From Candidatus Enteromonas sp. (GTDB lineage: Bacteria; Bacillota_I; Bacilli_A; RFN20; CAG-826): a stretch of DNA of 64,000 bases. The position numbers and the translations under genes are program-made. Below the pieces are notes generated by a model. That model had not been told where the DNA came from and searched no databases. It was given only the letters and a program-made list of their open reading frames with translations. Shown here one piece after another: positions 32,809 through 57,143 of the stretch. Where the stretch lies: positions 28,819-92,818 of the forward strand of contig JAXDTZ010000014.1 of the NCBI GenBank assembly GCA_034089705.1, in the 5' to 3' direction. Position 1 is the first letter of the stretch, and the number at the start of each line of letters is the position of its first letter.

Positions 32809-32809
32809 C

Positions 32810-33664
32810 ATGATCCGGAAATACTTCAAACTCTACCCGCATTACCTCGCGATGGCGGTGAAAAGCAAACTGATTTACCGCCTCGATGCGGCCCTTGGCA
32901 TCATCGGGTTCTTCTTCAGCAACGGGGCGACCTTCCTTTCCCTTTATTTGGCCTTGAGCTCCATCGGCGGGCTCGGGAAATGGAGTTTCATGCACATCAT
33001 TTTCCTCTATGGGTTCTTGATGATTCCGATGGGCATCGACCACATGCTGACCGACCGGCTTTGGAATTACGGAGGCTGGCTCATCCATAATGGCGAACTC
33101 GATCGCATTTTGATGAAGCCGTTGAATCCCCTCTTCCAAATGTGCGCGGAATTCTTCCAAGAAGGGGGCATCGGGGAGATTGTCCTCGGCGTGGCCTTCA
33201 TCGCCATCAGCGCCCCCAACATCTCGGTGACCATCTCCTTCTCGAGCGTCATGGCTTTGATCGTCGGGGGATTTTTCTCGATCTTCATCTATTTCGCCAT
33301 CAAACTTGGGTCAATGAGCGTCGCTTTCTACACCCATCGTTCCATCTCCTTGATGTCGGCGCTTTACAACGTCAAGGATTTCGGGCGTTACCCCGGGAGC
33401 ATCTACCATTCGTCCCCCAAGAAAGTTATCGGCAACGTCTTCTACAATATCTTGCTGTTCCTCTTGCCTTTTGGCTTAGTTGGATATCTGCCGGTATCCT
33501 GCATTTTGTTCCCCGGCGACCCCATTCCCTTCTTGTGGTTCTCCATTCCCCCTTCTTCTTGGCTCGTCGCCGGCATCATCGCCGTGGTGGCGATCGCTCA
33601 CTTCTCCTTTGCCTATTGGTTGTTCCGGCGAGGCATTCGCCGTTATGGCTCCGCCGGGTCGTGA
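32810..33664 (+). CDS. ABC-2 family transporter permease (second subunit)
   Basis: 284 aa, 6 TM; GGGAGG RBS; 1 nt after the previous stop. Confidence 0.8.
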   Translation: MIRKYFKLYPHYLAMAVKSKLIYRLDAALGIIGFFFSNGATFLSLYLALSSIGGLGKWSFMHIIFLYGFLMIPMGIDHMLTDRLWNYGGWLIHNGELDRILMKPLNPLFQMCAEFFQEGGIGEIVLGVAFIAISAPNISVTISFSSVMALIVGGFFSIFIYFAIKLGSMSVAFYTHRSISLMSALYNVKDFGRYPGSIYHSSPKKVIGNVFYNILLFLLPFGLVGYLPVSCILFPGDPIPFLWFSIPPSSWLVAGIIAVVAIAHFSFAYWLFRRGIRRYGSAGS

Positions 33665-33741: not shown

Positions 33742-35661
33742 ATGAAAAAATATTCTTCTGCCTTATTTGCGTTAGCGGCTTCTGCGTTGCTGCTCGTTTC
33801 TTGTAGCGTCGGGAACTCCGCTTCTTCGCTTGATTCTATTGCCCCGTCGAATTCGGAAACTTCGAAGGAGCCAACCCCCGACTCCTCGAAAGAGACGAGT
33901 TCGGAGGATTCCGAATCGCTGGTTTCTTCCGAAGAAGAGAGCAAAAGCGAAACGGTCACCGAACCGAGCGAAGAGCCCCAGGAATTCACGATTTCCCTCG
34001 TGGGGGATCCTTCTTCCGTAGGCGTCGAGGTGCAAGCCCCTTCTTCCGCGATCGAAGGGTCGACGGTCACTTTGGAAGTCACCGTTAGTGAGGGCCATAT
34101 CCTCGAATACATCCGTCTTTACGCCCCAACTAGCGCCGGTGGCGGGGTGCGCGTGAGCCCGGACGAAAAGGGAGCCTATACGTTTGTGATGCCTTCCCAA
34201 AATCTCACGATTTATTACAAAGGCGTCGTGGGATACACCGTCTCATTTGCCAGTGACCACGCGAGCGCCGTTTTGGCGGAAGATTCCGCGCCTTATGACC
34301 TTTTTGGGGAAGGCTATCCCGTCTACGTCATGAAAAACACCGTGGAAGAAGGGTATTCCTTCACCGGCTTCACCGTGGAAGATGAAAACGGGAATTCCAT
34401 CGAAACTTGGAACGACCGCATCGACCAAGTGGGATTCCTCATGCCCGCGGGCAACGTGACCGTCACTGCCCACGCGGTGGCGGTGGACGCCGTTTTCGTC
34501 GAACTGGCCGAGACCTATTCCAACGGATGGGCCATTGACATGAACGAACCCGCGAGCGGATTCGAACTTCAGATCGACATCGACGGGCGCATCACCCTCA
34601 AGACCGACTGGGCGGATCCCTATTGGACGGGCATCGCGACCTATTCGGGGGGAGTTCTTTCCGCTGACCTTTGCCATTTGACGGGCGATGGGTATTATAC
34701 CGACGCGTTCCGCCATTTCGACGCGACCTTCCATCAGGACCGCGATTACGTGACTGCAAAACTCTCGAGCGGGGAAACCGTTTACAACTACCTCTTCGCC
34801 AGAACGAGCGAAGCGATGGTGGTGAAGAAGATCTTCGCTTCCGATGCCTTGGATGGGGGATACGTCTTGAAGCACCGCATCGCCCTGGTAAGCGCCGCCA
34901 GCGGCGACTTCTTCTGCTATACGACCCCAGACCGCAAGGCCAGCTATTCCTTCTTGCGCGCTTTCGAAGCCTCGAGCGGCGAAGAAGTCCATAACCTCTT
35001 TAAAGGCGGGAACTACGTCTTAAAGGACGCTAGCGGCAACGAAGTCGTCGCGGTGAGCTATGACGGAAGCAAAATCTCCGTTTCGGGGCTCGAAAGGGGG
35101 ACCTACGCGGTCGATGAGTCCACCTCCATCTCCTTGGACGGGTTCGGAAATTACTCCAAAGGCGAAGAAACGGGAACCTACGTGCTCAAAGGCGACCAAT
35201 TGAAGCTCTCAAGCGGGGAAGAATACACGATCGACCGCGAAGCAAAAACGGCCACGCGCGTAGAAAAAACCGCTGCCCATCCTTTTTCAGGCAAAACTTA
35301 CGCGACAAGCGAAACCAATCCCATCAAGATTTTCGAAGAGAGCTATGACGATTACGCACCCAACGATTTCCAATTCCTCATCCAATTCGGACTCGGGGAA
35401 GGGGAGATCGAACAAGTCTCCTTCTTGCGGCTAGGAGACCCCTGGCCCCAAGTGGGCAGCACGAAAACCCTCACGACCAACATTTCCTACACCTATAGCG
35501 AAACCACCGGGCGTTTGACGGCAAGGCTGGGAAACGACACCGCGACGATGGTCTACGACGCGGAGAGCGATTCCTTCCGTTATTCCGGCACGATCTGGTA
35601 TTCCAATCAAGGGGATTACCAGACGAACAACAAAGACCTCACCTTGACCCTTAAGGCATAA
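33742..35661 (+). CDS. lipoprotein (640 aa) with S/E-rich linker and two copies of a recurrent ~85-aa module
   Basis: signal peptide with lipobox LLVSCS; AGGAAA RBS; modules ending TFVMPSQNLTIY and FLMPAGNVTVTAHA. Confidence 0.8.
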   Translation: MKKYSSALFALAASALLLVSCSVGNSASSLDSIAPSNSETSKEPTPDSSKETSSEDSESLVSSEEESKSETVTEPSEEPQEFTISLVGDPSSVGVEVQAPSSAIEGSTVTLEVTVSEGHILEYIRLYAPTSAGGGVRVSPDEKGAYTFVMPSQNLTIYYKGVVGYTVSFASDHASAVLAEDSAPYDLFGEGYPVYVMKNTVEEGYSFTGFTVEDENGNSIETWNDRIDQVGFLMPAGNVTVTAHAVAVDAVFVELAETYSNGWAIDMNEPASGFELQIDIDGRITLKTDWADPYWTGIATYSGGVLSADLCHLTGDGYYTDAFRHFDATFHQDRDYVTAKLSSGETVYNYLFARTSEAMVVKKIFASDALDGGYVLKHRIALVSAASGDFFCYTTPDRKASYSFLRAFEASSGEEVHNLFKGGNYVLKDASGNEVVAVSYDGSKISVSGLERGTYAVDESTSISLDGFGNYSKGEETGTYVLKGDQLKLSSGEEYTIDREAKTATRVEKTAAHPFSGKTYATSETNPIKIFEESYDDYAPNDFQFLIQFGLGEGEIEQVSFLRLGDPWPQVGSTKTLTTNISYTYSETTGRLTARLGNDTATMVYDAESDSFRYSGTIWYSNQGDYQTNNKDLTLTLKA

Positions 35662-35667
35662 CCATTT

Positions 35668-37500
35668 ATGAAAAAACAAGCATTATTTCTCTTATCTCTT
35701 TCCTTTTTGCTCGCTTCTTGCGGGCTAAACGCTTCCAGTTCTTCTTCCGATTCCATCGAGGAATCGCCCGTTTCCAGCGAATCCCTCCCTTCGAGCGAAT
35801 CGGTGGATTCTTCCCTTTCAAGCGATGAGCCGTTTTACCCTTCCATCCCCGGGACTCCCGAGATGGACGATGAAGCGGAGCACGACGCGGGAGGCCTGAG
35901 CGAACTCGACGTCCGCGAGGCGCTTCTCGAAGCTTACGAATCCAAGAAGACCCTGCGTTCCAACGTGGTAAGGAGCCAAGTCTACCTTCGGGGCAACACC
36001 GAAGGGTATGGGGTGGAACTCACCGAAACCCATTACGACTTCTACGAATCCCCGACCTATGGGACCATCATGACCGGTCGGGCCGAATATCGAAAGGGAA
36101 GCGGGGTTTATTCCCCCGTGATCGACCAAGATAGCGGCTACGGGTACCACATCCAAAGCTACGTGGACGGGGGATACCTCCATTACCTCGAAAAGGCCGA
36201 CGAGGGGGTCACTAGCCGCGTCAGTTACGACAACGTTTCGAAGAACAACCGCTACAACAACCTTTACACGATTTATTCGGCGAACCGCGACCTCGCCATC
36301 ATGGAAGACGTGCTCGATGCGATCGACAAGCAATACGGTTCCGCTTCCGAAACCGCAAGGTACATCGACACGATTGGGGATTCGATCATCTTCAAAATCA
36401 CGACTCACGAATACTCGCCCTACACCTACTACAATTACGACGATTTCTTCTATGTCCACCTCGACAAAACGACGAAAAAAGTCACCCGGGTGGATAGCGG
36501 ATTCCTCGTCTACGACCTCGGCGGGGATTTGAAAAACGAAGAGGCGATCCAAGCCATGCGAATCGATTCCGTTTCCCAATTCGATTACGAGAAACGGCCC
36601 GAGTTCCAAGGGACGCTCTACAACGAAAACGACGTGGAGAAGGTCTATGGACTCGCTCCCCAGCACAAAGTGGACTACTCCTCTTGGGAAGATGGGGTCT
36701 TGAGCACCGATCGTAGCGTCGAGATTCTCCAAAACCTCCAAACCTTCGCCGAAGGCACGACTTCTTCTACGGCGACCTTCCATTACGGCGGTTTCGTCGA
36801 TCCCCAATCCCAAGCCGACGAAGACAGCGGGGAATACGCCATCTTAGGCGAAGCTAGCGGCACCGCCACGACCACCCTCTACGAAGGGGATTTCGCCGAA
36901 ATCCAAGGACAGATCTCGCTCGTCAACAAAGAGGGAACCAAGGAAATCTCGATGGTTTCCCAAACAATCGCCGACGACGAAGGGATGCGCATCGCGACGG
37001 CGTATTCGGATGTGTTAAAGAGCCATAAACACGTTTTCAAAGCCAGCGAAGTCTCCGACACCGACCCGTATTTGGGCATCTCTCCCATCTATCGTCCGGA
37101 AGTCTTCCATCCTTTTGAAATCGCCGCCGGATGCGGGCTCAATTGCGACAAGAATTCCCCGATCAACGACGACAGCAACACCTACACTTCCGCGGGGGCC
37201 TTGAGCAAATCCGGGAATGTGATCACGGGCAAACTCACCAAGGTGTACCACAAGAACGTCTGGACGCCTTATTGGACTTACAGCGCTTCCTTTACCATCG
37301 AAGATGGCTTCTTGAGTTCCATCACTTTGGACGTTTCTACCTACCGCGAAAGCGATACCGCGCATTACGAATTCGATTCTTCCTTTGCCTTCGCGATGAA
37401 AAAAGGCGAGCCGGTTCTCCCCTTCTCTGGGGACATCCTTGATGTTTCTTCGTTAAAAGAAGGATCGGTCATGGCCAAGAACGAATGGATTTACATGTAA
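35668..37500 (+). CDS. lipoprotein (610 aa), unknown function
   Basis: MKKQALFLLSLSFLLASCG lipobox followed by S/E/D-rich low-complexity linker; 6 nt after the previous gene. Confidence 0.8.
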   Translation: MKKQALFLLSLSFLLASCGLNASSSSSDSIEESPVSSESLPSSESVDSSLSSDEPFYPSIPGTPEMDDEAEHDAGGLSELDVREALLEAYESKKTLRSNVVRSQVYLRGNTEGYGVELTETHYDFYESPTYGTIMTGRAEYRKGSGVYSPVIDQDSGYGYHIQSYVDGGYLHYLEKADEGVTSRVSYDNVSKNNRYNNLYTIYSANRDLAIMEDVLDAIDKQYGSASETARYIDTIGDSIIFKITTHEYSPYTYYNYDDFFYVHLDKTTKKVTRVDSGFLVYDLGGDLKNEEAIQAMRIDSVSQFDYEKRPEFQGTLYNENDVEKVYGLAPQHKVDYSSWEDGVLSTDRSVEILQNLQTFAEGTTSSTATFHYGGFVDPQSQADEDSGEYAILGEASGTATTTLYEGDFAEIQGQISLVNKEGTKEISMVSQTIADDEGMRIATAYSDVLKSHKHVFKASEVSDTDPYLGISPIYRPEVFHPFEIAAGCGLNCDKNSPINDDSNTYTSAGALSKSGNVITGKLTKVYHKNVWTPYWTYSASFTIEDGFLSSITLDVSTYRESDTAHYEFDSSFAFAMKKGEPVLPFSGDILDVSSLKEGSVMAKNEWIYM

Positions 37501-37515
37501 ACGAGGTTTTCCGAC

Positions 37516-39042
37516 ATGAAAAAACGCATTTTGTTCCTTTCTTCTCTCCTCTCCCTCGCTTCTTGCAGCGCGGGGGGAATTTCTTCGAGCAAACCCCAAG
37601 AAAGCGGCCTTTCTACCTTCGATAGCGCCCTTTCCAGCGAATCGGCGGAAGAATCTTTGAAAGAAGAAACTTCTTCCCTTTCCGAGAAAGAGCAATTCCT
37701 TTCTTATTTGACTTCCTTGAATGAAACCCATCGCTACACCGCTCGCCTTTCCTATTCCGTCCTTTCGGAAGACGGGGAAGAGCACATGTTCCCGTATGGG
37801 ATTCAAGAGCAATACGGCGATCAGGCCCTTCTTTGGTTGGACGAAGAGAGGGCCATCAATTCCGGGGTCCTCATCAACGGGGAACAAGGGGTGTTCGATT
37901 TCTCGATCGTAAACGGCGAGTTGGTCTTAGGGAACTTCTCTTTCTTCGATGCCGGAGAGCCCATGGGAGAGCTCTACAGCACCCCCATCGACTTCGCCAA
38001 CCCCCGTTATTGGGTGGAAGACGAGGAAGGCGGATTCCACAGCAATTCCCGCCAAGTTTCTAGCGCCCTGGCTTCCTTAAGCGGCCTTCAGGACTTGGAG
38101 AACTACTATGGCGTCGAATTCAGCGCCGGGACAGCGTTCGCCTCCCTTTCCGACAACGGATTCTCCGTGCGGATGGATGCCTTGCTCGAAGGCGAAGTGG
38201 CCGCAAGAGGCTATATTGAGGTCGTGGATATCGGCGAAACGAGCAACCAAATCGTGGAGGATTATTTGAAGAATCCCCGCGTCGTTACCGCGAGAACGCA
38301 GTGGAGCGACGACGATCTGACCACCATCTCCCACTACTTTGCGGGCGATCTTCCCTTTCCCGAAGGGGCGAGCTACACCTTGTCGGTGAATTCGCTCGAC
38401 GATTACCTCGAAGTCATCATCGCCGATTGCGCTTCCGGGGACCTATCCGCCTCTTATAAAGCGCAGCTCGAAGCTCTCGGATACCACGTCGAATTTAAAT
38501 CCGAACATAGCCAATACGTCGCGGAGAAGGAAACCGTCGGGGAGAAGGAAATCGCCACCGACCTCGTGATTTTCTCCTATTTTTCCCAAAGCGAGATCGA
38601 ACAAGCCTATGGCAAAGAAACCGCGGAATTCTATCCTTATGGGCGCTTCCAAATCGAAGCCTACACCGACACCGTGGAAATCCACACCTACGAAGAAGGA
38701 ATCGCCGCGTTAGCAAAATACAGCCAATTCCCCACGCCGAGTTTTTCTGACGTGAGCCACACGGTCATCAATGACCTCACCGAATCCTTCGGGGCGTATC
38801 TGAGCGCCTACGTCACCGTTTCCTTCTATTGCGAGAACCAAACCGTCGCCACCGCCAACCTCAACGCTTACGCCGAGGTTTTGAAGGAAGCCGGTTTTAC
38901 GCTCGATGCCGATTCCACCGAAACCCACATCGCCTTGACGAGCAGCACCGGAGAAAAGGCGAAATACGTCGACCTCAACTTGGCATTGACGGAAGATAAT
39001 TCTTACCTTGGATATTTTGAGGTCACGTATATCGCGGAGTAA
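37516..39042 (+). CDS. lipoprotein (508 aa), unknown function
   Basis: MKKRILFLSSLLSLASCS lipobox, S/E-rich linker. Confidence 0.8.
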   Translation: MKKRILFLSSLLSLASCSAGGISSSKPQESGLSTFDSALSSESAEESLKEETSSLSEKEQFLSYLTSLNETHRYTARLSYSVLSEDGEEHMFPYGIQEQYGDQALLWLDEERAINSGVLINGEQGVFDFSIVNGELVLGNFSFFDAGEPMGELYSTPIDFANPRYWVEDEEGGFHSNSRQVSSALASLSGLQDLENYYGVEFSAGTAFASLSDNGFSVRMDALLEGEVAARGYIEVVDIGETSNQIVEDYLKNPRVVTARTQWSDDDLTTISHYFAGDLPFPEGASYTLSVNSLDDYLEVIIADCASGDLSASYKAQLEALGYHVEFKSEHSQYVAEKETVGEKEIATDLVIFSYFSQSEIEQAYGKETAEFYPYGRFQIEAYTDTVEIHTYEEGIAALAKYSQFPTPSFSDVSHTVINDLTESFGAYLSAYVTVSFYCENQTVATANLNAYAEVLKEAGFTLDADSTETHIALTSSTGEKAKYVDLNLALTEDNSYLGYFEVTYIAE

Positions 39043-39044
39043 CC

Positions 39045-40826
39045 ATGAAAAAGAAAACATTCGCTATTTGCAGCATTTCCTTCCTTCTTCCGCTTGCTTC
39101 TTGTGGCCCTGCCGCTAGTGAAATCTCTTCTTCCAGCAAGTCAGAGATCCCTTTTGTCATGCCCCAGGGCTTGTTTCTCCGTTTGGAGATTGGGGAAGCC
39201 AAGGCCGTGGATTTGGCCGAAACGATTCAAGGGGATTTCACCCTGGCAAGCGAATCGCCCAACATCCTTCTTTCCGGGACCAAAGTCATCGGAATGGATT
39301 ACGGACCTTTCGAGGTGAAAGTCTTGCACAACGATGAACAGCACCGGATTTCCGGAGAAGTCATCACCAAGCAATCCAAGGAAATGGAAATCTACCTTAG
39401 CGATCTGCAATCGACTTACGTCGCGTTCGATTCCTTTTCCGGGGTCACCTTAAGCGGGGACGATTATTATGCCTTCATGATCGGGCAAGACGAGAATTCG
39501 GGAGCCTATCTTTATTCCGGCGGAATCCAGGATCCTTCTTCTTCCCTCTATATTCCTTTTTATCTGGGGTCCACCCCACTCCAGGAACTCGGGGAGGAAA
39601 TGGTTTTCTCCAAGGCCAGTTATTACGCGGGCTATGAACGGAGCAAAGAGAGCCTCTCCATGGAAGGATGGACTTTGTCGTTCTATGAACTCGAGGAACA
39701 GCATGACGGGAGCGGGGATTCCACCGGGGAATTCGTCTACCTTCCCGAAGACCCTTCCCTCGTTTATTCCCTTTACCGTTCGTTGCTTGGGTCAGAAAAC
39801 CCCTTGCCCAACTTGATTTTTTCTTATGGGGGCGCTGCTGGCCTCAGCTTGAAGCTCACCCCTTCCTCCTTGCGGATTTTGCCAATAGACCAAAAGAAAA
39901 ACCCGATTTCTTCCGTTTCGGTCTCGGGGTATAGCATCCCCACCGAAATCCATCTTTGGGGGAGCGATCTCATGATTCCCGCTTTCGAGGAGTGGCGGAA
40001 CAAACCCACGATTCCCCCGCAATTCCCACGAAACGAATTGCCGGAATATTTCCAATCCCTCCAAAAGGCGGATTCCTTTACTTACACCATCGATGCGAGC
40101 TGGCAAAACCCCGAAACGGGGGCCAAGACGGCTTCCCCATCCACTTTCGTATTCTCCGACACGGGGACGACCATGTTCAGTTCCTTTGCCCTAAAAGGGG
40201 TTTATCAGGGTTCGGCATTAGAAAAAACCGTGGTGGAAATCGAAGAAAAAGCCACCTCTTTGTCGGGGCATCTCCCCAAGAAAAGGGATCGAACCTTGGA
40301 ACGCATTTCCTCTTCCGCCGTTGGGAAAAGCTTTCAGACGTGGAAGGGCGAAGAAACCGAAGAAGGGTTCCTTTACGGGAACCGGAGCTCGGTTCCTTCC
40401 CGTTATTCCGATTTCTTTTCCGCGAACATCCTCCCCGGGGCACTAGCCGCCTCTTCGTTATGGGACCAAGCCTCGATCGTGGCCAAAACAAGCGAAGAAG
40501 ACGGAACCATTCGCTTCGTTTACACCCCGAATGGGTCCGACTTCTCTTCCTATTCCTACAACTCTTTCCTCGGGGGAATCCCTTACGCCTTCCATGGCAT
40601 GGATTACGGGGATCTGAGTTTATGCGGATTGCTTTATCTCTATTATTTGGAATTCGCCTGGACGAGTTGCGCGTTTGAACTTGCGGTGAACCCCCTCTCC
40701 CAAGAGTTCTCTTTCTTAGTCGAATTCCAGTATTCTTCCGAGCTCGTTTACCGTTATTCCTTGTCCATTTTCGGCATCAATTCTTCTTCCTTATCCCCCG
40801 AAGCCCTCCAGGCGATCGAGGGGTAA
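39045..40826 (+). CDS. lipoprotein (593 aa), unknown function
   Basis: MKKKTFAICSISFLLPLASCG lipobox; 2 nt after the previous stop. Confidence 0.75.
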   Translation: MKKKTFAICSISFLLPLASCGPAASEISSSSKSEIPFVMPQGLFLRLEIGEAKAVDLAETIQGDFTLASESPNILLSGTKVIGMDYGPFEVKVLHNDEQHRISGEVITKQSKEMEIYLSDLQSTYVAFDSFSGVTLSGDDYYAFMIGQDENSGAYLYSGGIQDPSSSLYIPFYLGSTPLQELGEEMVFSKASYYAGYERSKESLSMEGWTLSFYELEEQHDGSGDSTGEFVYLPEDPSLVYSLYRSLLGSENPLPNLIFSYGGAAGLSLKLTPSSLRILPIDQKKNPISSVSVSGYSIPTEIHLWGSDLMIPAFEEWRNKPTIPPQFPRNELPEYFQSLQKADSFTYTIDASWQNPETGAKTASPSTFVFSDTGTTMFSSFALKGVYQGSALEKTVVEIEEKATSLSGHLPKKRDRTLERISSSAVGKSFQTWKGEETEEGFLYGNRSSVPSRYSDFFSANILPGALAASSLWDQASIVAKTSEEDGTIRFVYTPNGSDFSSYSYNSFLGGIPYAFHGMDYGDLSLCGLLYLYYLEFAWTSCAFELAVNPLSQEFSFLVEFQYSSELVYRYSLSIFGINSSSLSPEALQAIEG

Positions 40827-41139
40827 AAAGGCCGAAATCCAATTTGTCGACCGATACCTGAAAGCGCTTTCAAAAGTACGTGTTATTTTTTGGCGTTTAT
40901 TCTGTCAATGAAAAACGGAAATTTCTTCAATCATCCTGACGAATAACCAAAATTTATTTGAAACCGCGCATTATTCAACGTTTTTAAATTTGAAGGGAAG
41001 TTCGTCAATTCTAACTTGATAAATTAGAAAGAGCGAAAAATGTCAGTCAAAACCGTTTTTCACGCAGGTACGCGTAAAAAAACCCTTGACCGATTTCAAA
41101 CGGCTTTTATTGTAAATTTGTTACTCTCAGGAGGATTCC
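40827..41139 (+). promoter_or_regulatory. 313-bp AT-rich intergenic spacer; probable internal promoter/regulatory region for the giant lipoprotein genes
   Basis: GC far below flanks; TTGACC (41086..41091)-16 nt-TATTGT candidate; AGGAGG RBS 7 nt before ATG 41140; small palindrome GAAAGCGCTTTC near 40858. Confidence 0.4.
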
Positions 41140-44100
41140 ATGAAAAACAGAAAAACCATGTTGTTTGTCCTCTCCACGGTGGCTCTTCTCGGCCTTGCCG
41201 CCTGTGGTACTCCAAACAGCAGCCTAACCCCCTCTGAGGAAGAATCGTCGACGATTAGCTCTGACGTCGAAGAAAGCGTTGGCTCGGAATTCGTATCCGA
41301 ATCCGATTCCGAACCTCAAGTTCGAAAATACGCCATCATCGACGATGCCGGGGACCACGTCTTCCTCAAAAACCTCCCCAGCGAAGCCGCGATGGGAGAA
41401 AAGATCACTTTCTCCATTGAAGCGGCCGAACCGGGATACGCCTTCACGGGAACCGTAAAAGGCACCTTCTTCGACAAATCGGCGGAGTTCCCCATCGCGA
41501 AGAACGAAGATGGAACTTACAGCTTCAAAATGATTTCCGCCGACGTCACAATCGTCGCCGAAACCGAGCCGATGGTCGTCCGTCTCAACTACGACCTCCC
41601 CGCGAACCGGGATCTCGCGGTCGACTTCTACCAAAAGGTCGATTTGCACACCTATGCGACCGCCGAATACCGCGCGGTTGCCGGCGTTTACCAGGGCGCC
41701 TGCAAAGACGGGACCTACGATCGTTTCTTCCGCCTCACCCTTGGCTACGACCGCACGTTTGTCATCGTGCGCGCCTCTTCGGAAGCCAACTTGGAGCAAT
41801 CCCCGGAAGTCACTTTCACCGGGACATATGTTTCCGAAGACCGCGGAGATGGTAACTACATCATCACCGTTCAGTACGAAACCTGCGATTCCGGCTATTA
41901 TTCCTCGCTCACTGGGGAAATCTACGTTACCTCGAACGCGGAAGGGCGCGCGGTCACCGCGATTGACCTGATCACCTCCGCCAGCGGAAGCTACCGTTAT
42001 GGTTTCCAAACCGGAAGCGGCGCTTTCATCGAAGGAGCCAAAGAATTCGAAGAAGGGACTTATCGTTACATCAAATGCGACGGGAAGCCCCAATACGGCT
42101 ACTACCAAGACGCGCTCTACGTGAAGCCGATCGCCAACAATTATTACGAAGAATCCGTCGTCATGGTCGATGACACGGTCTGCGAGAAGAACGAGGACGG
42201 ATACTATGTGGCCTCGCTTCCCTTCCATACCGCCACGATCAAAGTCGACAAACGCGTCCGTTATTCGCCCATCGTCATCCAGAAAGACAGCGAATATGTT
42301 AATGTTCGCGCCTATACCCGCGCGGAAGCCAAGGTGGACGGGGAAGTTGTCAAAGACGAATCTGGCAACACCGTTTACGAATACACCGAGGTCACGGAAG
42401 CCAAATACCAAGACGAAATCTACTTCAAGATCGAAGTGGACGAAGTGGAAGGATTCAAATTCAACGGCATGCGCGTCCGTTACGGCAGCAAGGCCTCCGA
42501 TTTCGTTGACACCCTGACCCACGCCTCCCAATTCACTCAAAACGCGGATGGCTATTATCACGCCTCTTGGACCAAGATGACCGACATGGACTATGGCATG
42601 ATCGCCACCGTCCAAACCGCCACCGCCTGGGCCACGGGGGATGACGCCGCCTTTGTCGTCACCGGGCAATCCCGCCAATTCGGCAGCACCCTCACGAGCG
42701 AATTCTCCGTGAACGAATACGGCGAAGCGGCCTTCGGAACCAAGAAATTCTTCTTCGGGAAAGACGATTATGACCCCGCCACCGGAAAAGTGGCTTGGCA
42801 CGCCTACCAAGAATCCGTCACCTACGACGGATATTACGAAGGCGGCCTTTACGTGGTCAGCGCCGTCAATACCTCAACTTCGATCAACAACGTTTATTTC
42901 GGCGTCAAGAACCTCTATGACGAAGAAGAAGCCGCGCTTCCCATCACTTACACCGAAACCAAAACGGCGGCCGGAGATTTCGCGATTGTCGACATCGCCC
43001 AAGGCGAATCCACCAAGACCGTCGTTCTCGGCGACTTCGATCCGGAAACCGGAACCGATGATAACGGCGTTTTCCACGATGCCATCACGGTTCATGGGAA
43101 CTACGAACTTCGCGTCCTCAATGGCGCGGAGAGCTACACCACTCCGGGCGCGGTTGTCGATGTTATGGACGGCGAAACCGTCCTCGCGACGTACAAGAAT
43201 TACAACTCGGTCCTCAAACCGTTCGTCAAAGGAACCGCGGGAACCTTTACCGCGGAAGGCCTTCCGACCATCGTTACGGACGGCTTTGGCGGCGTGACCA
43301 TCACCGCCAACCCCGGATCGGAAGAAGAAACGGTTGTGAACGCCTTCTTGACCTCCAGCGAAGCCACGGAAGAAGGCAAGGAAAACCTTTCGGTCTTGGC
43401 TACCAACGCGGACGGACACGTGGTCCTCTACGCCGTGACCCTCGACGTGGAAGCAAAAACCTATGTCGCTGGGAAAACCTTCGGCACCGTCATTTCGGGC
43501 AAAAACTATCGCGGCGTTTCCATCAATAACACCACTGCAGGAGTTTCCGGAGGCAGCGTCTACCTTCTCACCATCGGGGAAGGGGACAAACTTGGCACCG
43601 CCGTCTTCTATCAAGGGTCTTCGAGCACCGCTTACAAAGACATGGCCCTTTCTTCGGATGGCTCCATCACCGTCACGACCCCGGATTCCACGAATTATAA
43701 GGTGAATTTCACCGCCGACGGATCCTCGGTCATCGCCCGTCACAGCAATCCGAATAATTCCTCCGTCATCCTCACCGACAAGATCACCGCCACCTATGCG
43801 AGCTACTTTACCTTTAATAAGGTGAACGTCGCTGGCGGCGTCTTGGTGGAATTCACCCCATCCTATTCGAGCTATGGCACGCGAACCGGGCATCCGTTCT
43901 TCGTCCGGGAACTCGGCAACAACTGGGACATCGAATTCGTTGACGTTACCTACGCCGAAGGAAGCGAACAAGCCTTCGAAAAGGAAGGCGCGCGCTTCTC
44001 CTTGACTTTGGATGGCGAAGAATACGGGCCGTATTACAATACCGGCACCGCCATCGTCGCCGACGTTTCGGGAACCTATGTCATCGACGAAACCACCAAT

Positions 44101-44706
44101 TTGGAGATTGTCGGCGATAAGGTGACCTACAACGGGATGACCAAGACCTTCACCTTCGACACGACGACCAATACCGGTTCCTTCACGAATTTGGAAACCA
44201 CCGAGGAAGGCTCTTTCTTCAAAACCTATGAATTCGTTTTGGATACGGAAGCCATGACCGCCACCATTGAAGTGGTCAGCTCCGTTGCCATGGTGATTCC
44301 GACCATCGCCGACGAAGGATCCCTCTCTGGCTATGTCTGGACGCAGCAAGAGGATGGTTCTTGGGTTTCCCCGGGCGCCTTCAAATCCAACACCGCATGG
44401 CTCAACATCACCTGCGATACTTCCGGAACCTTGACGTTCGATTATCAAATCGGTTCTGAAGCCGGTTACGATTACCTCACCATCCAAACCAAGGTTGGCG
44501 ATGGATCCTGGACGACTCTCTCGGGATATTCTACCAGCGACAAATCCAGCAATTCCGGCGTTGTTTCCGGCTCGATCACTTTGGAAGTCGAAGCTGGGAC
44601 CGTGGTCCGCGTTGGCTATTACAAAGATAGCAGCGGGGATAAAAACGGCGACACAATCGTCGTTTCCAACGTCCTCATTGCCCCTTCGGCCGTGACCGAA
44701 GAGTAA
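41140..44706 (+). CDS. giant surface lipoprotein (1,188 aa), paralog A
   Basis: lipobox LGLAACG, S/E-rich linker, N-terminal recurrent module (…DGTYSFKMISADVTIVAETEP), long beta-rich body, conserved C-terminal ~115-aa domain (…DYLTIQTKVGDGSWTTLSGYS…). Confidence 0.85.
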   Translation: MKNRKTMLFVLSTVALLGLAACGTPNSSLTPSEEESSTISSDVEESVGSEFVSESDSEPQVRKYAIIDDAGDHVFLKNLPSEAAMGEKITFSIEAAEPGYAFTGTVKGTFFDKSAEFPIAKNEDGTYSFKMISADVTIVAETEPMVVRLNYDLPANRDLAVDFYQKVDLHTYATAEYRAVAGVYQGACKDGTYDRFFRLTLGYDRTFVIVRASSEANLEQSPEVTFTGTYVSEDRGDGNYIITVQYETCDSGYYSSLTGEIYVTSNAEGRAVTAIDLITSASGSYRYGFQTGSGAFIEGAKEFEEGTYRYIKCDGKPQYGYYQDALYVKPIANNYYEESVVMVDDTVCEKNEDGYYVASLPFHTATIKVDKRVRYSPIVIQKDSEYVNVRAYTRAEAKVDGEVVKDESGNTVYEYTEVTEAKYQDEIYFKIEVDEVEGFKFNGMRVRYGSKASDFVDTLTHASQFTQNADGYYHASWTKMTDMDYGMIATVQTATAWATGDDAAFVVTGQSRQFGSTLTSEFSVNEYGEAAFGTKKFFFGKDDYDPATGKVAWHAYQESVTYDGYYEGGLYVVSAVNTSTSINNVYFGVKNLYDEEEAALPITYTETKTAAGDFAIVDIAQGESTKTVVLGDFDPETGTDDNGVFHDAITVHGNYELRVLNGAESYTTPGAVVDVMDGETVLATYKNYNSVLKPFVKGTAGTFTAEGLPTIVTDGFGGVTITANPGSEEETVVNAFLTSSEATEEGKENLSVLATNADGHVVLYAVTLDVEAKTYVAGKTFGTVISGKNYRGVSINNTTAGVSGGSVYLLTIGEGDKLGTAVFYQGSSSTAYKDMALSSDGSITVTTPDSTNYKVNFTADGSSVIARHSNPNNSSVILTDKITATYASYFTFNKVNVAGGVLVEFTPSYSSYGTRTGHPFFVRELGNNWDIEFVDVTYAEGSEQAFEKEGARFSLTLDGEEYGPYYNTGTAIVADVSGTYVIDETTNLEIVGDKVTYNGMTKTFTFDTTTNTGSFTNLETTEEGSFFKTYEFVLDTEAMTATIEVVSSVAMVIPTIADEGSLSGYVWTQQEDGSWVSPGAFKSNTAWLNITCDTSGTLTFDYQIGSEAGYDYLTIQTKVGDGSWTTLSGYSTSDKSSNSGVVSGSITLEVEAGTVVRVGYYKDSSGDKNGDTIVVSNVLIAPSAVTEE

Positions 44707-44718
44707 AGGAGAACCCCA

Positions 44719-47700
44719 ATGAAACCATCGAAATTTCTTCTTGTTTTATCGGCGCTCGGGGCGATGACTCTCGCCTCCTGCTCCGTCGGGACGGATCCGG
44801 CTCCCAGTTCTTCTGAGCCGGTTTCCTCCCTTCCTAGCGACGTTAGCTCCGAAAGTTCGGTTTCCAGCGAATCGAGCGAACCGAGCGAACCCGAGGTCGA
44901 AAAATTCGACATCGTCGACGCCGTTGGCGACCACATCTTCGTCCATGGCCCCGTCCAGGCAGCCGAAGGCGAAGCCGTTTCCTTCCGCATCGACGTCGAG
45001 ATCGGGTATTCCTTCAGCGGAGTTATCGTGGCGAAGGATTCGGAACAAAACGTCCTCGACCTCGCCTTGAACGATGGGGAATACACGTTCACGATGCCGG
45101 CCTCCGCGGTCACCATTTCCGCCGAAACCATGGCCGCTTCTTACCTCCTCTCCTACTCTACTCCGGAAGAGCTTTCCCTCTCTGCTTATGAAATCGTGAA
45201 GGAAACCGAACTCGCGACGGAGGACCGGGAAGCCGTCGCCGGCGTTTACACCGGAACCCTCCAATATTACGACTATGGTTACGCGAATTGTGGACCCCTC
45301 ACCATCACCCTCGGGTACGATGGCTCCATCCACTTTGTGGAAGCCACCAGCGCCAGCGACTCCAGCGTGAAGTATGAAGCCGAAGGCGTTTATGAAGTCG
45401 AATGCCTCGGCGACGATACCTACGTCGTTCGTTTCGACCTCAAAACCGAAACCGGGGTTGCCGTGACTGGAAAGATGAAAATCGTCTCCAAAGTCGTTCC
45501 CGAAAGCGAGGTAGAAGGCGTTAATGTCCCCGAACACCGCGAAAGGACCTACACCGCCTCTTCCACTTACTACCTTGAAGTCAGCGGCAAGAAATACAAC
45601 CAAGGCAGCATTTCCGCCACGGGCGAAGCCGCGGAACTCGATCCGGAAAAAGACGTCTACCGCAAACTCGATGCCCTTCCCCAAGTTTGGGACTATTTGG
45701 ACCACTTCTATCTGAAGTCTTCCATCACTGACGAATACGTCGCCGGCTCCCTTTCGCTGAACGGGGAAGTGCTCGAAGCCAACGAAGAGGGTTATTACCG
45801 CATCGACATGCCGCATCACGCTTCGCGGATCGAATTGACCAAAGCCACCCGTTACGCTCCGATCGTTTCGGAAACCGATTGCCCGGGGCTCGAACTCAAA
45901 TCCTACGTCAAAGTGGTGGACGAACCGGTGGAGGAAGGCGGAGAAGCCACCTACCATTACGAAGAGGTCACCCAAGCCAAATTCAACGACCAAATCTATT
46001 TCAAAGCCGTGGATAAGGCCGACAGCGAAGTCCGTTATGGCTTAATCGGCATGACGGTCACCTATGGCCCGGGTTCGAGCAATTCCGTCAACTCCGTCTA
46101 CTCCATCAAGCTGAACGCCGATGGGTATTACGAATCCACTTGGCTCAAAATGTCCAATATGGATTTCGGCATGAGCGTTTCCTTCGTCGCGAATCCGGAA
46201 CTCCCGGAAAGCGAAGAACGTTTCGCCCTCGGTGCCGCCCTCACGGGTTTCGACTCCTATTCCTCCACAAAGGATTTCGCCGTGAACGAATTCGGCAAAG
46301 TCCTCTTCAACGGTTCGGAATATTACTACTCCACCGATGACATCGCCGAAGACGGCAGCGTCACCATGCACCGCTATACCTATGACGCCAGCCACGACAT
46401 CAAAGCCTACCGTCATAACGGCACCTGGGTTTTCCTCAAAGATTTGTCCAGCAACAAGCTCTCCTACTACGCCATCGGCGAAGCGGGAATTCCCGGCGCA
46501 GAGGGGGAAGAAGACCAAAAACCGTCCTTCTCCTTCTTGATGGATGCCTCGAGCGCTTCTAACGCTTCGACCGCCTTGGTGAACGTCACCCATGCCGACG
46601 GAACCTCTTCTTACGTCCAAATCGCCGACCTCGATCCGGAAACCGGCAAGGATTCCGAAACCGGCGTCGATCACGATGCCAAAACCATCCTCTGGGACGT
46701 AGACGTCGAGATCCTCAACGGGAAAGCGAGCATCGCCGACAAGGATGCCATCTTCGACATCAAGAAGGATGGCGAGATCGTGAGCACCCACATCAATGAA
46801 GGCGGCGTCATCGCCTCCTACGAAAAAGGGCCGAGCGGCACCTTCACCCGCGGTGAAGACGTGATCGTTTCTAACGGTGCGGGCCTCGTCACCTTCAACG
46901 GAGTCAATGTCCTGAGCTCCGCTTATGGCAATAGCGACGAAGGGAAAACCATCTCCTTCCTCGCCAAAGATGGCAATGTCGTTCGCCTCTACACGGTCGT
47001 CGTGGACGAAACCGCGAACACTTTTGCCCCGGCGAGCGGCAAGTCTTATGGAACCCCGGTCACGGGCGTTCGTCGCGGCGGATATTACAGCACCAGCGCC
47101 ACCATCAACTCTTCTAGTTATACGGTGAACCTCGGCGCGACCACCGAAACGGGAGAATTCGCTGAAGAAACCGCCGATGGATGCTATGTAAAAGTCGGTT
47201 GGACCGCTTATATTGGCACCTACAAGGTCAACTCCGATGGAAAAGTCGTCGCAAGCGTCGACGCTTCCGGAAGCACTTACAACTATGTCTTCGACTTCTC
47301 GGATGACGGTGAACTCGCCTTCTTCTACAAAGATGGCGATTCCTCCAAGTTCTACCTCTACTCCACCTTGGCGACGAGTGCCATGTCCTCGTCCAACACC
47401 AAACTCCTCGTTTCGAACTTCGGTTCGAAGAAGGTCTTCGCCTTGGTGCAAAACGGTTCAACCGCCGGCATCAGCGAATCGACCAACGTCCTCGTGCAAA
47501 ACGGATCGGAATACGCGCTCGGTAAGGTAACGCTTAGCGGCGAATTCGCTTCCTGGCATACCGAAGGAGCCACCTTCACTCTCACCGTCAACGGCGCGAC
47601 GAGCGGAGAACTCTCCTATGTCGGCGGGGAAATAAAGGCCAACATCACCGGCGATTACACCGTGGAAGGACACGACAACCCCGTTCACATCGACAATACG

Positions 47701-48273
47701 GGGACGATCACCGTCGATGGAGTGGATTACGTCTTCACGATGAAGGATGATGGGACTTTGAGTTACACCATCATGGATATTCAAGAGGAAGCGGGCAAAA
47801 TCGTGTTCACGACTTACACGGTGACCTACGATGTGGAAGCGAAAACCGCGACCATTGCCCAAACGGGCGTCCGCGAAACCGGGCTCTTCATTCCTTCCGA
47901 TGCCGGAAGCGATACGAGCAAGGTTTGGACGGAATCCGAAGGCGTTTGGACCTCTCCGAGTGGATTTAGCAGCAAAGCCATCTACCTCAACGTCGAATTC
48001 TTCGGCGCGGGGACCTTCTCCTTCCACGCCAAGATTTCTTCCGAGTCCGGGTGGGATTACCTCACCATCCAGACGAAGGCGGCCGGAGCCACTTCCTTCA
48101 CCACCCTTTCTGGATACTCCTCTTCCGAAAAGAAAGCGAATTCCGGGGAAAAGGAATTGGACATCACCATCGAAGTCACCGCTGGCATGGTGGTCCAAAT
48201 CGGCTACTACAAAGATGGCAGCGGAAATTCCGGTTCCGACTGCATCGTCGTCTCCAACATGGTTCTTGCTTAA
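44719..48273 (+). CDS. giant surface lipoprotein (1,184 aa), paralog B (tandem duplicate of 41140..44706)
   Basis: lipobox MTLASCS; collinear similarity to paralog A (KFDIVDAVGDHIFV / KYAIIDDAGDHVFL; AVAGVY; RYAPIV / RYSPIV; WDYLTIQTKAAG…VVSNMVLA); AAAGGAG RBS. Confidence 0.85.
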   Translation: MKPSKFLLVLSALGAMTLASCSVGTDPAPSSSEPVSSLPSDVSSESSVSSESSEPSEPEVEKFDIVDAVGDHIFVHGPVQAAEGEAVSFRIDVEIGYSFSGVIVAKDSEQNVLDLALNDGEYTFTMPASAVTISAETMAASYLLSYSTPEELSLSAYEIVKETELATEDREAVAGVYTGTLQYYDYGYANCGPLTITLGYDGSIHFVEATSASDSSVKYEAEGVYEVECLGDDTYVVRFDLKTETGVAVTGKMKIVSKVVPESEVEGVNVPEHRERTYTASSTYYLEVSGKKYNQGSISATGEAAELDPEKDVYRKLDALPQVWDYLDHFYLKSSITDEYVAGSLSLNGEVLEANEEGYYRIDMPHHASRIELTKATRYAPIVSETDCPGLELKSYVKVVDEPVEEGGEATYHYEEVTQAKFNDQIYFKAVDKADSEVRYGLIGMTVTYGPGSSNSVNSVYSIKLNADGYYESTWLKMSNMDFGMSVSFVANPELPESEERFALGAALTGFDSYSSTKDFAVNEFGKVLFNGSEYYYSTDDIAEDGSVTMHRYTYDASHDIKAYRHNGTWVFLKDLSSNKLSYYAIGEAGIPGAEGEEDQKPSFSFLMDASSASNASTALVNVTHADGTSSYVQIADLDPETGKDSETGVDHDAKTILWDVDVEILNGKASIADKDAIFDIKKDGEIVSTHINEGGVIASYEKGPSGTFTRGEDVIVSNGAGLVTFNGVNVLSSAYGNSDEGKTISFLAKDGNVVRLYTVVVDETANTFAPASGKSYGTPVTGVRRGGYYSTSATINSSSYTVNLGATTETGEFAEETADGCYVKVGWTAYIGTYKVNSDGKVVASVDASGSTYNYVFDFSDDGELAFFYKDGDSSKFYLYSTLATSAMSSSNTKLLVSNFGSKKVFALVQNGSTAGISESTNVLVQNGSEYALGKVTLSGEFASWHTEGATFTLTVNGATSGELSYVGGEIKANITGDYTVEGHDNPVHIDNTGTITVDGVDYVFTMKDDGTLSYTIMDIQEEAGKIVFTTYTVTYDVEAKTATIAQTGVRETGLFIPSDAGSDTSKVWTESEGVWTSPSGFSSKAIYLNVEFFGAGTFSFHAKISSESGWDYLTIQTKAAGATSFTTLSGYSSSEKKANSGEKELDITIEVTAGMVVQIGYYKDGSGNSGSDCIVVSNMVLA

Positions 48274-48288
48274 TTCCCATTAAGCAGC

Positions 48289-48323
48289 AAAGCCGAGTCC
48301 TTCGAGGCTCGGCTTTTTCTTTT
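48289..48323 (+). terminator. rho-independent terminator after the giant lipoprotein pair
   Basis: AAGCCGAGUC-CUUCGA-GGCUCGGCUU 10-bp stem followed by UUUUUCUUUUCUU. Confidence 0.75.
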
Positions 48324-48451
48324 CTTCGATATTTGCTTCCTTATTTTCCATTGACGTGAATTTTTCAAAACGATATTCCATATTTCTCGCGCGCGTGTAT
48401 GATATTTTTCGTGCGCCCGTTTTGAGCGCTTGTCCATAATCGAGGTCACTT

Positions 48452-49675
48452 ATGAAACGAACTCCATTTCCTTATCTCCTTCTTGCCGGCTTATTGCTTG
48501 TTGGCTGCAACGCTTCTTCCGGGAAAGATAACAATTCCCAATCTTCCGAATCGGTTTCTTCCCTCGTTCCCAGCGTTAGCGAAGAAGAGAGCGCCTCTTC
48601 TGTAGAAGAAACTTCTTCTAATGCGGAAATCCCTAGCGTTTCTTCTTCGCAAGAAGAGAGCGCTGAGATTTCCTCCGAAGAAATCGCTTCTAGCGAAGAA
48701 GCCTCTTCGTCCATGGAAGAAAGCAGCGAAATCACCACTTTCGCCATCGCCAAGAAAACCGCCGGTTTTTCCATCGTCTTCTTGGGCGAAGGATTTGATC
48801 CAAATAAGGTCCAGCTTGGAGAAACCGTTCGTTTTACCTTGAGCGCTTTGGCGGATTATTACGAACTGAGCAAAGTCTATTACGCCACTTCGGACAACCT
48901 CAAAATCGATATCGGCCAAAATGAAGGGGTGTACTCCTTCCCCATGCCAAGCGGGAATATCACCATTCACGTGGAAAGCATCCGGAAATACGGATTAACC
49001 GTCGACTCGCCTTTCGCGACCCTCACCTTCTTGAACGAAGAGGAAACTTATTACAAAAGCGGAACGCGGATTTCCTTCTCGGTTGCCCCCATGGAAGGCT
49101 ATAGCCTCCGCAAAATCGAATACCGGTTCGACACTTCCTCTTTCGAATTGAACCCCACGGAAGAAGGGAACTACTCCTTCTCGATGCCGAGCGCCAACGC
49201 GACCATCGTCGTCACCGCGACCGAAATCATCGATGCCTCCCAAGATCCTTGGGCGGGAAAAGACGTGACTTACGGGGCTGAATTGATCCGAACTTACGAC
49301 CAAAAACTGATATGGACCCTTCATTTCAAGGGAGATGGAACGCTGGATTATCAGTCCCTCCTTTACGTAGATTATGGCGATTATGGCGATTATTACGAGG
49401 CTCCGAACGGGCAATTTGGGCCGGGAAGCATCCTTAGGGCGTGGGAATTCAACAAAATCGCGGCCGAGGAAAAAAACGCGACCTACTCGATCAACGAGGA
49501 AACCGGGTATTGCGAAGTGAGCCTTCCTACCGGTTATGCGCAGAACATGGCCACCGCGTCCTTTGAACTTTCTTCCGAACTTACCAACGGAGTCCCTTCG
49601 AAAATCACCTTGAAGAATTCCTTCTCGAACCACGATTTCGCCCCAGTCAAAGGAACGGTGTTCACCATCCAATAA
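48452..49675 (+). CDS. lipoprotein (407 aa) with two copies of the recurrent ~85-aa module
   Basis: lipobox LLLVGCN; S/E-rich linker; modules ending VYSFPMPSGNITIHVES and NYSFSMPSANATIVVTAT; own promoter-like region (TTGACG … TATGAT) at 48352..48400. Confidence 0.8.
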   Translation: MKRTPFPYLLLAGLLLVGCNASSGKDNNSQSSESVSSLVPSVSEEESASSVEETSSNAEIPSVSSSQEESAEISSEEIASSEEASSSMEESSEITTFAIAKKTAGFSIVFLGEGFDPNKVQLGETVRFTLSALADYYELSKVYYATSDNLKIDIGQNEGVYSFPMPSGNITIHVESIRKYGLTVDSPFATLTFLNEEETYYKSGTRISFSVAPMEGYSLRKIEYRFDTSSFELNPTEEGNYSFSMPSANATIVVTATEIIDASQDPWAGKDVTYGAELIRTYDQKLIWTLHFKGDGTLDYQSLLYVDYGDYGDYYEAPNGQFGPGSILRAWEFNKIAAEEKNATYSINEETGYCEVSLPTGYAQNMATASFELSSELTNGVPSKITLKNSFSNHDFAPVKGTVFTIQ

Positions 49676-49687
49676 GGAGATGCCCCC

Positions 49688-52600
49688 ATGAAAAAAACCA
49701 TTTTATTTTCTTTAGCCGCCGCTTCATTGCTCCTTCTTGCTTCTTGCGGAGGAAACAAGCCCGAAGCGCCTTCTAGCGAAGATTCTTCTTCCGAATCCAT
49801 CGTGAAAAAATACACCGTCCATTTCGACTTGAACGGAGGGGTGTTGCCAAGTGGAACGACCATCGAAGACCAACTCGTGGAAGAGGGGCATTGGGCGACC
49901 AAACCCTTGATTTCCCCGAGCAAAGCCCACAGCACCTTCTTGGGTTGGTTCACGGAGGACGGGTTCCAATGGAACTTCATGTCCCCCGTCATGGGCAACC
50001 TCAACTTGTTCGCCCATTATTCGGTGAACGAGGAATCCAAAGTCACCTTGACCTTCAACCCGAATAACGGCGAATCCTCTTACACGGTCGATACCTTCAT
50101 CGGGGATACCATTTCCACGAAGATCCCCTCCAAAGAAGGATTCGTCTTCAAAGGTTGGTATTACGGGGAAGGGAACCGCTTCACCGGTTACGTTTCCGAA
50201 GAAGTGGCCAAAGCCAAAACGTTGACGGCCCAATACGTCCAACAGGATTTCAACTACTATTTCGAGGTGAACGAAGACGACACGGTGACCATCACGGGCA
50301 TCCGCGACGTCAACTCCGTCGTCGTGTCCTTCCCGAACCAAATCAACGGGCGCGCGGTTACCCGAATCGGGAAAACCGCCCTCCAAAGTCGGATTTACGT
50401 CGAATCGGTCACCATTCCCGCCTCCGTGAAAGAGATCGAACCCCAATTTTGCAATGGGGCGAGGAGAATGGCGAGTTTCGAAGTCGAAGCCGGGAATACG
50501 GCGTACAAAGCGGAAAACGGAATTTTGTACAATGCCGATTTCACCGTGCTCGTCCGCGTGCCGGCGAAAGCCTTTTTGAGTTCTTCTTGCGTCATCCGTT
50601 CCTCGGTCAAGGAAATCGGGGCGTATGCCTTCTACGACCAAAAAGACGAAGGCATCAATAACGTCACCTTCCCCGAAACCTTAGAAACCATCGGGGAATA
50701 CGCCTTCTATGGCTGGAACAAAGCCACGAACCTCGCCTTCCCGGATTCCCTGAAAACCATCGGAAGCCACGCCTTCTGCGCGTTTGACACCGCCGAAAAG
50801 CTCACGATCAAGTGGGGAAATGGGCTAGAGGAAATCGGGGAGGCCGCCTTCTTCGGCCAATACGTCCACGACATCCTCGTCCTTCCCGAGGGATTAAAAA
50901 AAATCGGGGTCCACGCGTTCTCTTGCACGAATGGGGGCAACGCCATCACGAGCGTCGTCTTGCCTTCGAGCCTTGAAACCTTCGAAGGCGGGGTCTTCGC
51001 CAATTGCTATGGCATCGCCAAAGTCTCGATGAACGGGGAAAGCCCCGCCTACAAAGTCGAGGACAACATGCTGCTTAGCAAAGACGGCAAAAAACTCGTT
51101 TGGGTTCCTAGCGACCACAAGGGCAACATCGTCATCCCCGAGGGCGTGGAAGAAATCGGGGAATACGCCTGCGGGGAAATCCGGTACTACGATTCCCTGA
51201 CCTTCCCTTCCACCTTATCCAAAATCGCCCCTTACGCCTTCTTCTACAACGCGACCCTCACCAGCATCGAAATCCCTTCTTCGGTCAAAGAGATCGGGGA
51301 AAGCGCCTTCGACCGTTGCGAAAAGCTCGCTTCGGTCCAATTGAACGAAGGGCTCCAGCGCATCGGGCGGTACGCCTTTGCCGAGATTTCCGCTTCGAGC
51401 ATCTCCTTCCCCTCAAGTTTGAAAACGATCGGGGAGAACGCGTTCTTCGGATGCCGTTTCTCTTCCATCTCCTTCGCGGAAGGACTAGAAGAAATCCAAG
51501 ACGGGGCCTTCTATTTCCTCACCTCGAGTTACGAAGAAGATTCCTACGATTCCTATACTTCCTCTTTGGTGAATCTCTCCTTCCCCAATAGTTTGGTTTC
51601 CATCGGCGACCGCGCGTTTGCTAACCACGAAGCCCTCAAATCCATCACCTTTGGGAATGGATTGACCCACTTGGGGAGCGAAGCCTTCAGCGGGGCGAAG
51701 CCCACCCAATTGAGCGTTGCTTCGGGAGGAAACCTCGTCGTGAAAGACCTCGGGCTCTATTCGAGCGACTTCTCGACCCTCTTCTACGAATCTCCGGGAA
51801 AAACCGGCGAACTCTCCTTGCCTAGCGGCTTGAAGACGATCGCCCCCTACGCGTTAAGCAAAGTCGAAGTCACGGGAATCACCCTCCCGAATACCTTGGA
51901 AATCATCGGGGAAGGGGCGTTCTATGGCGCGTTTGACCGTAGCAGCGACATCTCTTTGACCTTCCCTTCTTCCTTGAAAGAAATCGGGGAAGGGGCGTTC
52001 TATGGCGCGAAAACCGATTCCATCGATTTCTCCACCGCCACCTCCTTAGAGACCATCGGGGCTTCCGCGTTCGAAATGAACGACGGCATTCAGGATCTCC
52101 ATTTCGCTTCCTCCTTGAAGGAAATCGGCAAAGATGCTTTCTATGCCTGCCCTACCACGAGCCTGCATTTCTCCGAAGGCCTCCTTTCGATCGGGGAATC
52201 CGCCTTCTTCGGGAACAAAAACTTGGGAGGGGAAGTCGTCCTCCCCGCCTCCTTGACTTCTTTGGGCGATTCGGTCTTCGGATCTTGGGGGAACACGACC
52301 GCTTCGGGGAACGAAATCACTTCCTTGCGGGTCGCGGAAGGATCTTCTTCCTTCTTTAGCGAGAACAACGTTGTCTACAACGCTTCGAAAACCGATGTTT
52401 ACGCGGTTGCGGGAAAGGCTAGCGGAACCATCTCCTTGCCTAGCACCGTGACGACCATCCATCCCTTCGCCTTGGCCGACGCGACTTTGGTCAGCGGCTT
52501 CTCTTTGCCCGAAGGCCTCCTCCACATTGGGGATTACGCCTTCTCCGGGGACGTGAGCGTTTCCCTCCTCACCCTTCCTTCGACCGTTTTGACCATGGGC

Positions 52601-52732: not shown

Positions 52733-52734
52733 TT

Positions 52735-56808: not shown

Positions 56809-56897
56809 TGTCTTCCCCTAACCTTTGCTAATGATACAACAATTCATGGGAAAACCCCAATTTTCGGTGTCATATCCCTCGCAGTCTCCCGAAAGTG

Positions 56898-56906
56898 TGC
56901 TATATT
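56898..56906 (+). promoter_or_regulatory. extended -10 promoter element (TGcTATATT) upstream of rubredoxin
   Basis: TGCTATATT 33 nt upstream of ATG 56939; AAAGGAA RBS 7 nt before the ATG. Confidence 0.4.
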
Positions 56907-56938
56907 TACTTTGTGGCAATGCCAGAAAGGAATCGACC

Positions 56939-57097: not shown

Positions 57098-57103
57098 GGA
57101 AAC

Positions 57104-57128: not shown

Positions 57129-57143
57129 ATGTTCGATTCATTA

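Follow-up and report, generated by a model that had tools for sequence, protein, structure and literature searches.

Four lipoproteins encoded close together in the window (the whole stretch of 64,000 nucleotides analysed here) appear to open their mature part with one and the same short module, which raises the question of what this module is and what it does so close to the membrane. The original prediction had counted six copies of it in the four proteins, quoting the end motif of each. All six copies and all quoted motifs are present in the translations, with 79-84 aa per copy. The four proteins (P1 to P4) belong to a run of nine consecutive genes on the + strand, spanning 33.7-53.9 kb, and a signal peptide with a lipobox is predicted on 9/9 of the products (33742 to 53880). 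We regarded as a lipoprotein any product with an N-terminal signal peptide ending in a lipobox L-[ASV]-[GAS]-C, the pattern of Lgt/LspA substrates, and all four module-bearing proteins have it; their predicted lipoboxes are LVSC (P1), LAAC (P2), LASC (P3) and LVGC (P4), placing the anchor Cys at residues 19-22. The proteins and their modules are as follows.

33742..35661, + strand: lipoprotein P1, 639 aa; lipobox LVSC, 59-aa acidic Ser-rich tether, two tandem modules and a C-terminal region of ~390 aa
33982..34227, + strand: module P1a, aa 81-162, of Flg_new_2 type; no Pfam match on its own
34228..34479, + strand: module P1b, aa 163-246, of Flg_new_2 type, abutting P1a; PF18998 at 25.5 bits
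41140..44706, + strand: giant lipoprotein P2, 1188 aa; lipobox LAAC, tether of 38 aa, a single clear module, then a long middle and, at the C-terminus, a conserved domain
41320..41568, + strand: module P2, aa 61-143, with MI where the family has MP; no Pfam match on its own
42088..42249, + strand: tentative, degenerate second module of P2, aa 317-370, ending ...EDGYYVASLPFHTATIKVD
44719..48273, + strand: giant lipoprotein P3, 1184 aa, a paralog of P2 with 31% identity over the full length; lipobox LASC
44896..45132, + strand: module P3, aa 60-138; PF18998 at 19.6 bits, E 8.9e-4, below cut-off
45679..45840, + strand: tentative, degenerate second module of P3, aa 321-374, ending ...EEGYYRIDMPHHASRIELT and aligned jointly with that of P2 (alignment A6)
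48452..49675, + strand: lipoprotein P4, 407 aa; lipobox LVGC, 74-aa tether, two tandem modules and a C-terminal region of ~150 aa
48731..48982, + strand: module P4a, aa 94-177; no Pfam match on its own
48983..49225, + strand: module P4b, aa 178-258, abutting P4a; PF18998 at 21.4 bits, E 2.4e-4, below cut-off

The placement at the start of the mature part held in all four proteins, the first copy beginning 38-74 residues past the lipid-anchor Cys. This intervening stretch consists to 68-82% of S, E, D, T and P in P1-P4, forming an acidic Ser-rich tether, and the tandem pairs in P1 and P4 abut with no linker between them. The ATG start of P1 at 33742 agrees with the start of a 95%-identical NCBI fragment (P0001).

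To establish the surroundings of these genes, we compared them with database records and with a related contig. The host, Candidatus Enteromonas, a taxon described on the basis of chicken gut metagenomes, corresponds in GTDB to UBA733, a genus of family CAG-826 in order RFN20 (PMC8035907). At NCBI, the hypothetical protein SOV58_04190 of a Candidatus Enteromonas sp. MAG matches P4 with 100% identity, and a second such protein matches P2 with 98%. Homologs of the whole proteins were very few, with 2 and 5 found among 5.8 billion database sequences. The same genes lie in syntenic order, one giant gene inverted, on the related contig (L002), whose proteins have the same architecture, with modules at positions equivalent to those of the window, in 2, 2 and 1 copies; no variation in module copy number was seen between the two. 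No tRNA gene was found in the window. Existing annotation said little of the module: NCBI product names are 'hypothetical', the precomputed Pfam field in the window genome was empty for P1, P2, P3 and P4, and an NCBIfam scan of P1-P4 returned no family. On the related contig, precomputed Pfam gave PF18998 as a weak or faint match for the P1 and P4 orthologs.

Pairwise identity among the six copies is only 20-42%, and we therefore relied on profiles in which every copy of one protein, or of both giant paralogs, had been left out. Such leave-one-protein-out profiles recovered the omitted copies, with per-copy E values from 1.6e-3 to 2e-16 and per-protein E values from 5.7e-11 to 6.4e-18. P1a, for instance, was found at E 4e-6 by the profile lacking P1, P4a at E 8.6e-8 by the profile lacking P4, and module P2 at E 1.8e-11 by the profile lacking both P2 and P3. 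The homology of the six copies is far beyond chance. Of the 511 ORFs in the six frames of the window, no other reached E<0.03 in these profile searches. A further motif, G[YF].F[ST]G, had been ascribed to every copy; it was present in only three of the six (P1b, P2 and P3), the corresponding site reading GYSLRK in P4b, DYYELS in P4a and GHILEY in P1a.

A first indication of what the module is came from PF18998 (Flg_new_2, 'Divergent InlB B-repeat domain'), listed in InterPro as 'Bacterial repeat domain'. Scanned singly, P1b, P4b and P3 matched it at 25.5, 21.4 and 19.6 bits respectively, so that one copy in six exceeded the gathering cut-off of 23.6 bits; P1a, P2 and P4a (3/6) gave no match to PF18998. 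When, reciprocally, the six-copy profile was run exhaustively with HMMER against 1.84 billion cluster representatives, it retrieved 11,583 proteins at E<=1e-3; those matched best are 568-6,654 aa long with 5-28 matched stretches each. All ten of the top matches that we scanned proved to be strong PF18998 proteins (E 5e-19 to 6e-85), and in 8/10 of them the best Pfam stretch coincided with the module-profile match in the same register, within a few residues. A profile built from only the three Pfam-negative copies (P1a, P2 and P4a) retrieved the same 10/10 top proteins and no shuffled sequences. Furthermore, hhalign of the six copies (alignment A1) against ten Pfam-delimited repeats gave 98.7% probability and E 2.6e-16 over 70 columns. 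A word-indexed search with the six-copy profile yielded a single match, a 95%-identical fragment, this method being too insensitive for a profile of 80 aa.

As a further guard against circularity, the identification was checked from the opposite direction with an outside-only HMM, made from 143 repeats and zero window sequences, the repeats having been picked by the six-copy profile. On the window it found exactly the six copies, at E values of 1.1e-9 to 4.5e-14 (P1a 6.1e-12, P1b 1.1e-9, P2 5.8e-12, P3 4.5e-14, P4a 7.2e-13, P4b 5.6e-13), and nothing beyond them among the 511 ORFs. In alignment A4, composed of the six window copies and 50 of the outside repeats, PF18998 was found on 46/56 members scanned individually; every member has the F of F.MP, and conservation is >=90% for the hairpin G as well as for M, P and T. 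Outside repeats end "...YTFTMPASDVTV.ATF", the very signature from which the module had been recognised, and G.Y.F.MP..N.T[IV] is accordingly a real signature, namely that of the PF18998 family itself. This family is a small all-beta domain of ~75-80 residues; in most cases it forms long arrays, joined head to tail, within giant surface proteins of bacteria. We conclude with high confidence that the module is a divergent PF18998 member; the folded part of each of the four lipoproteins begins with one or two clear copies of it, which would serve as a membrane-proximal stalk.

The same data bear on three other views of what the module is. That it might constitute a new domain, or an uncharacterised sub-family, was the reading of the original prediction, and the empty precomputed Pfam field, the 'hypothetical' product names, the three Pfam-negative copies and the lack of a sequence match in the PDB (nothing below E 0.13 with the profile) would all fit a new family whose likeness to known repeats is no more than superficial. 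This view is contradicted by the PF18998 matches, by reciprocal profile searches that agree in register, and by the hhalign result of 98.7% and E 2.6e-16; together with the profile of the Pfam-negative copies and the outside-only HMM, these refute it, and we consider it the least probable of all. The part of the prediction that stood is the placement in an InlB-B-repeat-like group distinct from Flg_new; the claim of novelty fell, as PF18998 covers the module. As regards identity, the domain is thus an already annotated one. As regards function, our literature search found PF18998 mentioned in two papers, both times in passing, and turned up no functional study of such a domain and no experiment with one. 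A canonical Listeria-Bacteroides repeat (Flg_new, PF09479 / TIGR02543) was a natural candidate, with such repeats encoded next door: the neighbouring LRR_5 lipoprotein (49688-52732) contains two canonical Flg_new repeats and the gene after it (52729-53880) contains one. Nevertheless, PF09479 reached at best 19.0 bits, on P1b, against a cut-off of 27, and did not match the other five copies; TIGR02543 gave 12.1 bits and E 0.19 against a cut-off of 20.95; the six-copy profile did not score the Flg_new repeats of the LRR protein (E 2.1); and hhalign against the three repeats of the window, a shallow three-sequence profile, gave 0.3%. The module had been called clearly distinct from its neighbour's repeats, and so it is; the hhalign value and the sub-cut-off scores make a canonical Flg_new repeat very improbable. 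To a similarly slight degree one may entertain a generic bacterial Ig-like domain (Big or filamin-type) in which the shared motif is convergent. A remote superfamily relation of the module to Flg_new is possible.

The number of modules in the giant paralogs may be higher than one each. A second region shared by P2 and P3 (alignment A6) aligned by hhalign at 93% and E 3e-7 to the 56-sequence A4, window copies included, and at only 19% and E 1.2e-3 to the profile of ten outside repeats. The outside-only HMM gave a weak match at the equivalent place in the orthologs (E 0.0014-0.0075), and a third internal region of the giant paralogs reached 59% in hhalign. It is therefore possible, judging from the sequences, that our count is low and that a degenerate second copy exists at aa 317-370 of P2 and aa 321-374 of P3.

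What might the module do? Tandem repeats of beta-grasp and Ig-like domains, termed 'periscope' domains, space or project other domains off the cell surface (PMC12415215). By analogy, lipidation and signal-peptidase II cleavage would leave each protein attached to the membrane through the N-terminal Cys and a flexible tether, and the rigid beta modules that come next would form a membrane-proximal stalk, spacing and presenting the distal, protein-specific domains. A membrane-proximal stalk or presentation module is the most likely role, given the architecture and what is known of such repeats, and we infer that long PF18998 arrays elsewhere act as stalks likewise. With one or two domains such a stalk would be very short, about 3-8 nm by our estimate.

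Conservation within the giant proteins gives some weight to another possibility. Among P2, P3 and their orthologs, identity is 38-44% in the module and 40-52% in the C-terminal ~130 aa, as against 22-32% in the middle regions. A pure spacer would not need a module conserved above the middle regions, which hints at a specific interaction. The copies could then be a specialised, lineage-specific Flg_new_2 subtype whose main task is binding, either docking to a shared surface partner or acting as an adhesin for host or dietary glycans. In keeping with this, three different protein families encoded by one conserved gene array all carry the module at the same N-terminal site, most copies have diverged beyond the Pfam cut-off, and the InlB B-repeat is reported to bind a receptor in addition to spacing (PMC12415215). 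However, every signature position is ordinary for the family, as the conservation in A4 attests, no distinguishing motif was found in the copies, and the proteins that the six-copy profile matched best are multi-repeat PF18998 proteins of the ordinary kind. We regard a binding subtype as unlikely, though deserving of attention. Its more specific form, in which an anchor-proximal, lineage-specific Flg_new_2 subtype would be the common docking or adaptor element tying unrelated lipoproteins of the nine-gene array to a shared partner or ligand, and not a passive spacer, is more doubtful still.

With the module read as a divergent PF18998 domain, the domain itself is one already catalogued, and what is new are divergent members that automated annotation had missed: the Pfam cut-off overlooks divergent PF18998 copies in the Candidatus Enteromonas lineage (order RFN20). 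An annotation gap is thereby filled, since the label 'hypothetical' on four surface proteins of this uncultured gut lineage can give way to that of Flg_new_2-repeat lipoproteins.

Finally, we compared the modules with the systems that they most resemble. They share with PF18998 repeats their length (~75-84 aa) and register, the Y.[IV]T start, the G..V hairpin, the GY.[FL] middle and the Y[ST]F.MP..[DN]VT[IV] end, and copies follow one another in tandem without linkers both in the window and in the outside arrays. Several window copies have nevertheless lost the GY or the MP of the signature (GH in P1a, DY in P4a, MI in P2). The top PF18998 matches typically have 5-28 matched stretches, whereas one or two clear copies are found here, and in contrast to typical PF18998 proteins these copies lie N-terminally in lipid-anchored proteins, just past an acidic Ser-rich tether. 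Unlike the InlB B-repeat or Listeria-Bacteroides repeat (PF09479, TIGR02543, PDB 2Y5P), the module lacks G[WF] after GY.F. The AlphaFold2 model of the P3 copy (pLDDT 92.4) is all-beta, and generic Ig-like domains fit it at least as well as does the solved beta-grasp B-repeat 2Y5P. With 'periscope' stalk repeats it has in common the placement of rigid beta domains between an anchor and functional distal domains, but only 1-2 copies (perhaps 3) are present here, and the proteins would be held by an N-terminal lipid, where 'periscope' proteins of Gram-positives have a C-terminal LPXTG.

Each of the two giant lipoprotein paralogs (41140..44706 and 44719..48273, both on the + strand) may carry a degenerate second copy of the Flg_new_2-like repeat (42088-42249 in one, 45679-45840 in the other). 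Alignment of these regions by hhalign gave 93% against the 56-sequence profile, built from the six window copies and 50 outside repeats, but only 19% against the profile of ten Pfam-delimited outside repeats. A third, interrupted Flg_new_2-like copy is possible in both paralogs at 42391-42561 and 45967-46134 (59%).

For the lipoprotein P1 (33742..35661), the mechanical ORF list gave TTG 33721 as the start. Translation from ATG 33742 (MKKYSS...) yields a normal signal peptide and agrees with the start of its NCBI homolog, a 95%-identical fragment. Further along this protein, the C-terminal region (aa 413-489; window 34978-35208) matched Lipocalin_4 weakly, under the cut-off (E 0.015).

This gene opens an array on the + strand (33742-53880) in which nine of nine successive genes encode a lipoprotein signal peptide with the lipobox L-[ASV]-[GAS]-C, followed in the array proteins by Ser/Glu-rich low-complexity stretches. 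Searches of Pfam, NCBIfam and the module returned no match for the array genes at 35668, 37516 and 39045. Within 49688-53880, a BspA-type LRR_5 lipoprotein bears two canonical Flg_new repeats. Its stop shares a 4-base overlap with the start of the next gene downstream, which encodes a 383-aa lipoprotein with a single Flg_new repeat. The array gene set was found again on a related contig (L002, 2041-20847), with one gene inverted relative to the window.

An ABC-2 type transporter lies immediately upstream of the array on the same strand, and a cyclic-di-GMP signalling gene cluster occupies 54412-60691 on the - strand, with an Hpt protein and a rubredoxin nearby:

30956-33664, + strand: ABC-2 type transporter, one ATPase (PF00005) and two permeases (PF06182)
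within 54412-60691, - strand: response regulator carrying both an HD and a GGDEF domain
within 54412-60691, - strand: GGDEF-EAL protein that matches PAS_9 weakly, under Pfam's cut-off (E 1.7e-4)

G+C content is 0.37 at window 62001-64000, compared with 0.50-0.58 elsewhere in the window.

The best conserved part of the giant paralogs is their C-terminal ~130 aa (window 44284-44706 and 47881-48273), sharing 52% identity. This region, which may be a jelly-roll ligand-binding domain, showed two weak similarities: one with PF20773, the InhA-like MAM domain (E 0.01 and 0.036), the other with a CBM25 starch-binding module (PDB 2c3v; E 0.015).
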